Source of the DNA: a virus
Lineage: Duplodnaviria > Heunggongvirae > Uroviricota > Caudoviricetes
Direction: 5' to 3' (one strand)
Virus record (IMG/VR): IMGVR_UViG_2874933748_000005
DNA: 48,295 bases
The position numbers were made by a program. The first letter of the stretch is position 1; each line of letters opens with the position of its first letter. Positions 33,601 through 36,600 of this stretch are shown here, one piece after another.

Positions 33601-36600
33601 TCGTAAGCAACAAACTTCCCGCCATATGTTCCACCGTGTACACCGCGCTCAGTAAAAACCACAGATTCGTGGTTTTTCTCCAGCTCGGCTAAGAACTCTT
33701 TGGTCTGCTTGTTTCGCAGGTAGTGGTAAGGCGATTCAGATTCACTTTTACCACTGGCTTTCCACATATCAGTGAGGCAGATCATGCCATCTTCACCGAT
33801 ACGAATTGGTTGATTGAAGAGGGTTAATGATTTCATAGCGTGTACCTACTCTTTGAAATGAACCTTTGCCGCACAGGAAACCAGCCCACCGAGGCTCGCC
33901 AGCACTAACTGGTATCCTCAAAGGCCCATTCCAAAGGGGCAGGTTCGGTGTAAAAAACATGCGTTGCGGTACGCATTTATTGCAAAAAGCCCCGCATCGC
34001 GAGGCTCATTAAATGGACTTTGTGATTTGCAAAAAAATTATTTCAGGCATTGCGTCCTGATGTATTCCTGCAGGTAGTTAACCTGCGCGGTTATCTTGTC
34101 GATTCCACTTCGGAGACGGTAATAATTGAGTTCAGCATCTGCTGTAAGTCCTGGGCTTTCTCCATCGCCCATGCCGCTGGCTCCGGTCGTTGACTTTGCA
34201 CAGGTGGCGGCGACTTGCAGGCGCTTACGCCCAGCAGAAACATCAGCACGGAGACTTTCGATAGTCGCGTTAGCATCAGCAAGCTCCTTTATGTATCTTG
34301 CGTCGAGTTCTGCTACATCACGTTGACGCTTCCGCATGTCAGCGATGGTGGCGTTCGCCTTCTCCAGTTCACTGGCCTTGTTATCGCGCTGCTCTTTGTA
34401 GGCGATTGCGTTATCACGGTAATGATTAACAGCCAATGACAGGCAGACGATGATGCAGATAACCAGAGCGGAGATAATCGCGGTTACTCTGCTCATTGTT
34501 TCCCCCACAAACAGACTTCACGCTCAATCTCACGGCGAGTCATCAGTCCTTTCCATTGATTACCGCCAGCGTATGTCCAGCGCCGTAGCTGATCACATGC
34601 GCCTTTAATATCACCCTGGTTTATTTTGCGAAGAAGCGTCGATGTTCTGAAATTGCCAGCACCCACGTTGTAGACGAACGAGTAAAGAGCGCAGCGCGTT
34701 GTTTCCGGTATATCGACTTTGATGTACGGGTTAATTTGTCTGGCGACAGTGGCAAGGTCTTTATTCAGGAGGGCTTTGCACTCTGCTTCGGTATACGTTT
34801 TACCGGGAATGATGTCTTTTCCTGTATGCCCGTAACATACAGTCCATACACCAACTATGTCTTTGTAAGGATTATGTCTCACACCTTCCAGACCATCGTT
34901 ACCACCTGGGCCAGTGATTAACACAGATGCTATAGCAATAGCCCCGCCACCAATAGCAGCAGCAACAGCTTTTCGTAATGATGGAGGCATTATCCACCTC
35001 TCGCAGCCTTGCGCTTATCTTCTTTAATCTTGAAATAAAGGTTTGTCAGGTACGTCAGCAGGCCAAATACCAGGCTACCCAGCACTCCAATTGCCGCCCA
35101 CTGTGAGGGCGTGACTTTATCTAGCAGCTGTAAAAACCAGTACCCGGCACTACCTGCTGAGGTGCCATAGGCGACACCCGTTGTTAACTTATCCATGGAT
35201 TTCATAACCCCACCTCGCAGACAAAGCGGGTGTAAATTGAGGGAATACTACGAAACGTAACAGACTCGGAGTCAGTGAATAACTCAGGTATTGGGTTATC
35301 AGCTAATATCGAGACTCAAAAAATGGAAAAACCCGCTCGACGGCGGGTTTAAGCTGTGTGACGAAGTAACCACTCTTAACAGCATAACCAATTTTGGTGA
35401 TGCTGCCAACTTACTGATTTAGTGTATGATGGTGTTTTTGAGGTGCTCCAGTGGCTTCTGTTTCTATCAGCTGTCCCTCCTGTTCAGCTACTGACGGGGT
35501 GGTGCGTAACGGCAAAAGCACTGCCGGACATCAGCGCTATCTCTGCTCTCACTGCCGTAAAACATGGCAACTGCAGTTCACTTACACCGCTTCTCAACCC
35601 GGTACGCACCAGAAAATCATTGATATGGCCATGAATGGCGTTGGATGCCGGGCAACTGCACGCATTATGGGCGTTGGCCTCAACACGATTTTACGTCACT
35701 TAAAAAACTCAGGCCGCAGTCGGTAACCTCGCGCATACAGCCGGGCAGTGACGTCATCGTCTGCGCGGAAATGGACGAACAGTGGGGCTATGTCGGGCTA
35801 AATCGCGCCAGCGCTGGCTGTTTTACGCGTATGACAGTCTCCGGAAGACGGTTGTTGCGCACGTATTCGGTGAACGCACTATGGCGACGCTGGGGCGTCT
35901 TATGAGCCTGCTGTCACCCTTTGACGTGGTGATATGGATGACGGATGGCTGGCCGCTGTATGAATCCCGCCTGAAGGGAAAGCTGCACGTAATCAGCAAG
36001 CGATATACGCAGCGAATTGAGCGGCATAACCTGAATCTGAGGCAGCACCTGGCACGGCTGGGACGGAAGTCGCTGTCGTTCTCAAAATCGGTGGAGCTGC
36101 ATGACAAAGTCATCGGGCATTATCTGAACATAAAACACTATCAATAAGTTGGAGTCATTACCCCAATTTTTTACGTACGTAAACCACTAAATGATATTTG
36201 CGAGAATGCTACCGAGTATTGAAAACACCACTACAAATACATAAGCAAATCCCAACAAATAACCAACAAATAATTTCCAGTGTTATTTTTAGCCGGTTTA
36301 AATTGAACCTTCAAATTATAGAGCACTTATAAATAACAGCCGTTAATATAAATTGGCTAATAGATTTATTTTTATTCAGTCAAGAGCCATGAATAGGATT
36401 CGATAGAAAAAAGTTCAGATAAAAATAGAGATCTACTTCACAAATCAAACGAGAAACCAAAACTTACATCTTGAAATAATCACATTGATTAGATGAATAT
36501 TTATCGCGCAATGACATCATTTTTTAATAATAGTTCAAAAAAAGGGCTCACGATGAAAAAATTAACAGTGGCAATTTCTGCTGTAGCTGCATCAGTACTG

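Follow-up and report, generated by a model that had tools for sequence, protein, structure and literature searches.

IS1 insertion in the predicted late promoter PR' of a DLP12-like prophage and its probable consequence for control by the antiterminator Q

The closest described relatives of the locus analyzed here are phages 933W and H-19B, which have an annotated pR'-qut-terminator region, and two elements, the DLP12 (qsr') prophage of Escherichia coli K-12 and the lc region of phage PA-2, which share with our locus the genes rusA-ylcG-quuD, an opposite-strand porin gene and the lysis genes essD-rrrD-rzpD. Our locus lies in a 48,295-nucleotide sequence from a virus of the Caudoviricetes (IMG/VR record IMGVR_UViG_2874933748_000005), the whole of which is called the window below, and it belongs to a DLP12-like lambdoid prophage on the minus strand. 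Insertion sequences are known in this part of such elements; K-12 carries IS5 inside nmpC and E. coli B carries IS1 inside the porin gene, and in both the late promoter PR' is untouched. In the window, by contrast, the porin gene is intact, and it is PR' that appears to be split, by a copy of the insertion sequence IS1. We propose that this IS1 separated the -10 hexamer, the start site and the terminator tR' of PR' from the -35 hexamer and from a candidate binding site of the antiterminator Q, and that Q control of the late genes was thereby lost; we put the probability of this whole chain at about 0.6. The insertion of an IS into a promoter, forming a hybrid promoter, is a well-known kind of event and the instance in the window is new. 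Ordinary as the event is in kind, its location is unusually informative, for it would pinpoint both PR' and a candidate Q site.

The position of PR' was derived from comparison with other phages. A BLAST search with the 190 bp between IS1 and the holin gene S revealed that the segment 35381-35327 recurs in phages with very different Q genes and neighbours. When IS1 is removed, the minus strand from 36183 to 35322 (GGTTTACGTACGTAAAAAATTGGTTATGCTGTTAAGAGTGGTTACTTCGTCACACAGCTTAAACCCGCCGTCGAGCGGGTTTTT) is homologous to the annotated pR'-qut-terminator of 933W and H-19B and aligns base for base with both. It contains, in this order, the -35 hexamer TTTACG (36178-36183), 16 bp, the -10 hexamer TATGCT (35381-35386), which stands opposite TATCAT in the alignment to the annotated 933W pR', the conserved core TAAGAGTGGTTAC (35366-35378), a hairpin and a T-run; TTTACG, the 16-bp spacer, the core, and a CCCGC...GCGGG hairpin with its T-run are common to the window, 933W and H-19B. 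The core occurs once in the window and spans the probable start site, an A at ~35374. The hairpin is part of a tR'-type intrinsic terminator (35319-35350, minus strand) at about +25 to +55 of the PR' transcript. Its 8-pair stem, AAACCCGC and GCGGGTTT around the loop CGTCGA, runs from 35350 to 35329 on the minus strand and is followed by TTCCATTTTTT, with a centroid fold of -12 kcal/mol. Across the aligned PR' homologues the stem is conserved and the loop is variable.

In the 933W record (NC_000924), pR' is annotated at the end of Q, which it overlaps, as TTTACG, 16 bp and TATCAT; next come a putative qut site and a terminator hairpin, and beyond them the second terminator (+258), tRNA genes and stx. 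The PR' transcript of the Shiga toxin (Stx) phages of Sakai has been mapped as a 258-nt RNA ending at tR' (Sy et al. 2020, PMC7547250). When 258 nt are counted back from the T-run of the second terminator of 933W (2209-2214 in our 933W segment, L006), the start falls at 1955-1957, 5-7 nt past TATCAT, which agrees with the 933W annotation. The window differs from 933W in that PR' lies ~2.4 kb from Q, beyond a porin gene, with S directly after it, and in that the palindrome upstream of the -10 hexamer is ACGTACGT instead of ACGATCGT. The window shows the features of a lambdoid PR'-tR' region of the Q933W/DLP12 branch, namely homology to a PR' with a mapped transcript, a same-strand Q gene upstream (38207-37824), PR' at ~36183-35374 before the start of S at 35205, and an intrinsic terminator in the leader. 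Judged from these comparisons, IS1 very probably lies within PR'.

Two further observations concern the core and the leader. The PA-2 record (J02580, 1986) has a CRP site annotated exactly over the PR' core (AGAGTGGTTACTTCGTCACAC; 1522-1542 in our PA-2 segment, corresponding to ~35374-35354 of the window). This block is more likely a PR' element, because it resembles the CRP consensus only weakly and is also present in phages that lack a porin gene. A search of Rfam gave no family for the leader; weak hits to Trp_leader (28.8 bits) and isrK (E = 0.49) are both below threshold.

The IS1 copy occupies 35396-36162 on the plus strand, with insA pointing away from the lysis genes. Its length is 767 bp, compared with ~768 bp for IS1, and its ~23-bp terminal inverted repeats, on the left (IRL, GGTGATGCTGCCAACTTACTGAT, 35396-35418) and on the right (IRR, 36140-36162), were found with 0 mismatches each, where 0 chance matches are expected; the copy differs from the other copies in the window by 1 bp at most. 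It is flanked by direct repeats of CCAATTTT, one beside IRL (35388-35395) and one beside IRR (36163-36170). The duplication is 8 bp long, because the ninth base differs between the two flanks, and on the minus strand it reads AAAATTGG, which corresponds to positions -21 to -14 of PR'. We rebuilt the empty site in silico by deleting IS1 and one copy of CCAATTTT, and the resulting 836-bp sequence was found uninterrupted in 2,350 complete E. coli genomes, with identity up to 99.6%. Thus, IS1 is a simple insertion. Among 5,426 complete E. coli genomes not one has the exact junction of the window, and an exact scan of the GTDB species representatives gave no match either. An earlier note on this DNA, made from the sequence alone, had described a simple insertion with a clean 8-bp duplication, placed between porin and lysis cassette, directly upstream of a tR'-like hairpin; the flanks, the empty sites, and the 8-pair stem with its T-run bear this out. 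The distances given in it, 190 bp between the element and the start of S (35205) and 390 bp between the element and the porin ATG (36553), are also right. In DLP12 and PA-2, which it named among the phages for comparison, the PR' segment is nearly identical.

The transposase genes of this IS1 copy are not all intact. The insA gene (35451-35726) is complete, and the loss of one G from a GGGG run at 35795-35797 splits insB into two frames (35645-35905 and 35782-36147), so that the intact insA/insB' frames for the InsAB' transposase are absent from this copy. As it stands, the copy is therefore non-autonomous, though it could be moved in trans; the 1-bp deletion may also be a homopolymer sequencing error. 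The same deletion is present in the IS1 copy at 47309-48075, and the copy at 5430-6197 is intact. An identical G-run deletion thus breaks insB in two of the three complete IS1 copies of the window, and either one defective copy begot the other by trans-mobilisation or the sequencing error is recurrent.

The boundary of IS1 falls between -22 and -21, inside the 16-bp spacer of PR'. The S side of IS1 keeps the native sequence from -21 onward, with the -10 hexamer, the start site, the core and tR'. On the far side, 776 bp off, are the -35 hexamer, the rest of the spacer and the palindrome ACGTACGT (36173-36180, minus strand; -31 to -24 of native PR'). The IRL of IS1 contains an outward-facing -35-like hexamer, TTGGCA (35404-35409, minus strand), 17 bp from the native -10 hexamer TATGCT, a spacing within the 16-18 bp of IS-derived hybrid promoters with an outward -35 box. 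The resulting TTGGCA-17-TATGCT is one of five promoter-like sites that a consensus scan found in 3.5 kb, and it matches the consensus at 9 of 12 positions with a 17-bp spacer; the native promoter matches at 8 of 12 with a 16-bp spacer. By consensus matches, then, the predicted hybrid promoter would be no worse than the native one.

An outward -35 box at the IS1 end is documented in PMC8764528, citing Prentki 1986, and IS1 hybrid promoters of this kind (Prentki et al. 1986; afaA of E. coli ST131, PMC8764528) share with the window a -35 in the IS1 repeat 17 bp from a resident -10. The window differs from the afaA type in that its -10 came from a working promoter; a -35 half and a probable regulator site were swapped and no silent gene was activated. 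It also differs in having a terminator within ~50 nt, and in that its promoter is predicted only. IS1 has entered other points of the porin-PR' spacer, which is AT-rich (30% G+C), in EC24, TA8571, EC6 and KY204, and insertion sequences have hit the porin region repeatedly. A hybrid promoter directed from the IRR side towards the porin gene was considered and rejected; the candidate TTGGAG-17-TACGTA lacks the final T of the -10 and is 390 bp from the gene. An effect of IS1 on the porin promoter, which the earlier note had allowed for, seems unlikely, because IS1 lies further from the gene than the porin-proximal CRP site of the PA-2 record, by ~260 bp.

From this arrangement, the following consequences would be expected. 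With the native -35 TTTACG and the palindrome ACGTACGT displaced by 776 bp, TTGGCA of the IS1 left end pairs with the retained TATGCT, and RNA polymerase probably still initiates at ~35374. Q could not load without a Q-binding element beside the start site, and the transcripts would end at tR' after ~50 nt. The genes for holin, endolysin, spanin and virion proteins would stay off even when Q is made, and any transcription from further upstream would have to traverse IS1 in antisense and then meet tR'.

Is PR' generally found so far from Q? We scanned IMG/VR for TAAGAGTGGTTACNTNGNCAC and obtained at least 120 loci; the counts given here and for the palindrome refer to the matches listed. A PF06530 Q gene, its product 39-100% identical to the window Q, lies upstream on the same strand in 100 of 120 loci, and where 3 kb or more of upstream DNA is available a same-strand Q is present in 75 of 76, at distances of 42-2,889 bp. 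Of the loci with a Q, 24 have the core within 100 bp of it, 9 at 101-1,000 bp, 62 at 1-2 kb and 5 beyond 2 kb, which means that PR' lies more than 100 bp from Q in 76 of the 100 viral contigs with an identified Q. That the core is not adjacent to Q in most contigs, 62 of 100 having it at 1-2 kb, is an observation in its own right; judged from these sequences, insertion of morons, either a porin gene or other genes, between Q and PR' is common. Stx2_14040 has the same core ~40 bp past the stop codon of Q, and Stx2a_WGPS2 has it beyond a two-gene moron on the reverse strand. The layout Q-porin-PR'-S is also common to the viable phages PhiR34_1, ev243, mEp332 and 434B.

The 188 bp adjacent to Q (37636-37823) were found in 39 loci, all with a porin gene, and with none of the related porin-less Q genes. 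This, together with the linkage of Q and PR', indicates that the porin gene and its flanks form a moron between Q and PR'. Thus, by its distribution, 37636-37823 belongs to the porin moron and not to a promoter region tied to Q. The 188 bp contain two hairpins, including a plus-strand terminator at 37773-37790, and a consensus scan found no promoter there. A PR' of the phage 82 type in this spacer was also considered, since -10-like strings and an inverted repeat occur there, and was rejected; the spacer has no homology to the 933W/H-19B PR' and travels with the porin gene only.

The part of PR' that varies with Q is upstream of the IS1 boundary. We extracted the upstream segments of all loci, which gave 47 distinct ones, and aligned them without gaps. 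A perfect four-pair palindrome centred at -28/-27.5 is present in 89% of these segments, and other palindrome centres between -60 and -8 account for at most 4% each. The palindrome, 8-9 bp long, has an A5-6 or T4 tract after it and was seen in loci L005 to L129. Its sequence follows the lineage of Q: ACGTACGT occurs with Q proteins 84-100% identical to the window Q, ACGATCGT (933W/H-19B) with those 71-82% identical, GTTATAAC at 62%, GCGGTCCGC at 45-52%, GCGTACGC at 44-48%, GGAATTCC at 48-49% and TCGTTACGA at 39-45%, and this match holds at any distance between Q and PR'. Preservation of the symmetry through changes in both halves points to a DNA site bound by a dimer. Lambda and 82 have their Q-binding element between -35 and -10. 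Because of the preserved symmetry and the position of the element in lambda and 82, we read the palindrome as a candidate element that is probably bound by Q in the branch of Q933W and DLP12. In the window, the hybrid promoter has CAGCATCA at the palindrome positions, which shows no similarity to the palindrome. The fuller proposal, that the palindrome is the Q-binding element of this branch and varies with Q lineage, and that IS1 replaced this half of PR' to give a constitutive, Q-blind promoter whose transcripts die at tR', is tentative, and we would give it somewhat less than an even chance.

A described case of Q loading in this protein family is that of Q21 (Yin et al. 2019, bioRxiv 10.1101/651190). 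It is likewise a PF06530 protein, and close to the late promoter its binding element adjoins a sigma-dependent pause element. The Q21 site consists of two direct 8-bp repeats, whereas the candidate in the window is a single palindrome of 8-9 bp with an A-tract, and Q21 is only distantly related to the window Q (E = 7e-7).

Several other explanations of the insertion have to be weighed, and the main one is that IS1 in the PR' spacer is nearly harmless. The hybrid promoter would replace the native one, Q would need only DNA downstream of -21, and late expression would be kept or even raised. The hybrid scores at least as well as the native promoter by consensus, the 8-bp duplication restores the native sequence up to -21, with the TAAGAGTGGTTAC...CAC block and the hairpin intact, and the loading-complex site of Q21, directly upstream of the pause element, suggests a place for Q that could fall in the retained DNA. 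Against this, no upstream feature co-varies with Q except the lineage-specific palindrome with its A-tract (-31 to -18), which IS1 interrupts. Downstream of -21 the block stays the same among Q proteins sharing 39-100% identity, an invariance that fits recognition by host RNA polymerase better than recognition by Q; it was partly forced by the search pattern, which is a caveat on the palindrome as well. A benign insertion is unlikely in our view. The two remaining explanations move the start of late transcription upstream of IS1. PR' might lie directly downstream of Q, at 37636-37823, so that the late transcript would run antisense through the porin gene and IS1 would be a polar block, or an obstacle suppressed by Q, in a 2.4-kb leader. 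In lambda, 21, 82 and 933W PR' does lie directly after Q, AT-rich -10-like strings occur at 37745-37760, and 434B remains a phage although its porin gene, between Q and S, contains an IS5, which shows that an IS in the Q-S interval is tolerated. These points are outweighed by the terminator-like hairpins and the lack of a consensus promoter in these 188 bp, by their lack of homology to the 933W/H-19B PR' and their occurrence only with a porin gene, and by the presence beyond the porin gene of a pR'/tR' homologue whose linkage to Q-family genes holds in all contexts examined. A PR' next to Q is thus very improbable.

The other upstream start would be a host promoter dependent on sigma-E near the start of the porin gene (~36504, minus strand), which would mainly drive the lysis cassette, with IS1 as a polar block before S. 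The primers of Pasqua et al. 2021 (PMC7918800), which map to window 36625-36606 and to essD, support this to the extent that their fragment '-121..+650' puts +1 at 49 bp upstream of the nmpC ATG, and according to that paper the lysis cassette is under the control of RpoE, Q and Hha. The cloned fragment also holds the proposed PR', at ~+356 in that numbering, and the reporter data therefore do not discriminate. A transcript from the sigma-E promoter would still meet tR', which makes this explanation compatible with a split PR' and not a replacement for it; as the main source of lysis transcription we hold it to be a slim prospect. The split PR' with loss of Q control, which we prefer, has points of its own to answer. 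The transcription start at ~35374 is placed by homology only, and the numbering in PMC7918800, after Rueggeberg 2015, places the lysis +1 of DLP12 ~355 bp upstream of the proposed PR'. Binding of InsA or IHF at the IS1 end could keep the hybrid promoter silent. Control by Q would persist if the DNA that Q contacts lies entirely downstream of -21. The association of palindrome and Q could reflect linkage and not function, and in Q21, the only PF06530 member with a solved structure, two protomers sit on a direct repeat (Yin et al. 2019). The strength of the terminator is also uncertain, since the homologous first hairpin evidently lets the 258-nt transcript pass in Stx phages. In 933W, the hairpin homologous to tR' has a T7 run and lies at +27 to +49 (L006 1983-2005), and the second terminator is at 2186-2214. 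The first hairpin of 933W, a canonical-looking terminator, is thus apparently read through in Stx phages.

In the light of these comparisons, two claims of the earlier note change. It had implied a late promoter adjacent to Q, with IS1 along the late transcript; homology to 933W/H-19B and the linkage to Q in 100 contigs among the matches listed put PR' beyond the porin gene instead. It had also held that the late genes are cut off from Q, and had named a late promoter between 35206 and 35395, downstream of IS1, as the finding that would overturn this. The -10, start site and tR' do lie in 35206-35395, and on those terms the claim falls; the uncoupling itself may nevertheless hold, with the -35 and the candidate palindrome left beyond IS1.

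The comparison settles the position of the late promoter at this locus, and in phages of the DLP12/PA-2 type it places the porin moron between Q and PR', outside the late transcript. Because PR' is often distant from Q, the late promoter cannot be assumed to abut Q. A split PR' would explain how an intact and potentially lethal lysis cassette stays silent in an IS-ridden, defective prophage. The Q933W family governs Shiga-toxin expression, and the palindrome in the PR' spacer offers a testable candidate for its Q-binding site. If this is true, Q specificity, and which helper phage trans-activates which late operon, could be read from sequence.

On the minus strand, the order of the locus is Q, the opposite-strand porin gene, PR' with tR', S-R-Rz and the morphogenesis genes. 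Q (37824-38207, minus strand) was identified by protein homology as an antiterminator of the QuuD type (Pfam PF06530), and it shares 78-81% identity with the Q proteins of 933W and H-19B. The porin gene of the Lc/NmpC/OmpD type (36553-37635, plus strand) is an intact moron between Q and PR'. The late operon begins with an intact holin gene S/EssD of the S21 type (34990-35205), followed by the intact endolysin gene R/RrrD (34493-34990) and the spanin gene Rz (34038-34508), in which an Rz1-like lipoprotein reading frame (34091-34282) is embedded; all three are on the minus strand. The neighbours of the prophage include mlaA, a yfdC-like gene, a tRNA (2575-2646) and an integrase gene. The prophage retains Nu1 through J, tail fibres, the lysis cassette, Q, rusA and ninB. 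After ninB, at 39698-40839, no N, cI, cro, O or P gene and nothing recognisable of an immunity or replication region was found, and the sequence past ninB runs into an IS1 end at 40840. The early region is missing, and the prophage is therefore defective irrespective of the IS1 insertion at 35396; the insertion in PR' is a further inactivating hit on a prophage without an early region.

Other mobile elements were also observed in the window. An IS2-like element (31345-32613) lies between the accessory genes on the lysis side and Nu1/terminase; its InsC-like orfA is intact and its orfB is broken into pieces of 130 and 163 aa. The IS1 at 5430-6197 (768 bp, intact) has no target duplication (flanks CCCAATT and AGCCTTC) and lies beside fragments of an AraC-family gene, which suggests that IS1 mediated a deletion or rearrangement at the tail-fibre end of the prophage. 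The ends of the IS1 at 40840-43739 are 2,900 bp apart because an element of the IS21 family, with an istA-like gene from 41172 and istB at 42339-43139, is nested inside it. The 9 bp after its IRR (CGCTTGCAG, 43740-43748) recur, reverse-complemented, beside the IRL of the IS1 at 47309-48075 (48076-48084). This arrangement is characteristic of an IS1-mediated inversion of the segment between, which encodes a LacY-like oligosaccharide permease (43873-45120). Rfam gave a full-length match to IS009 (RF02111, 218 bits) at 6987-7185 on the minus strand, inside the tail-fibre assembly region.

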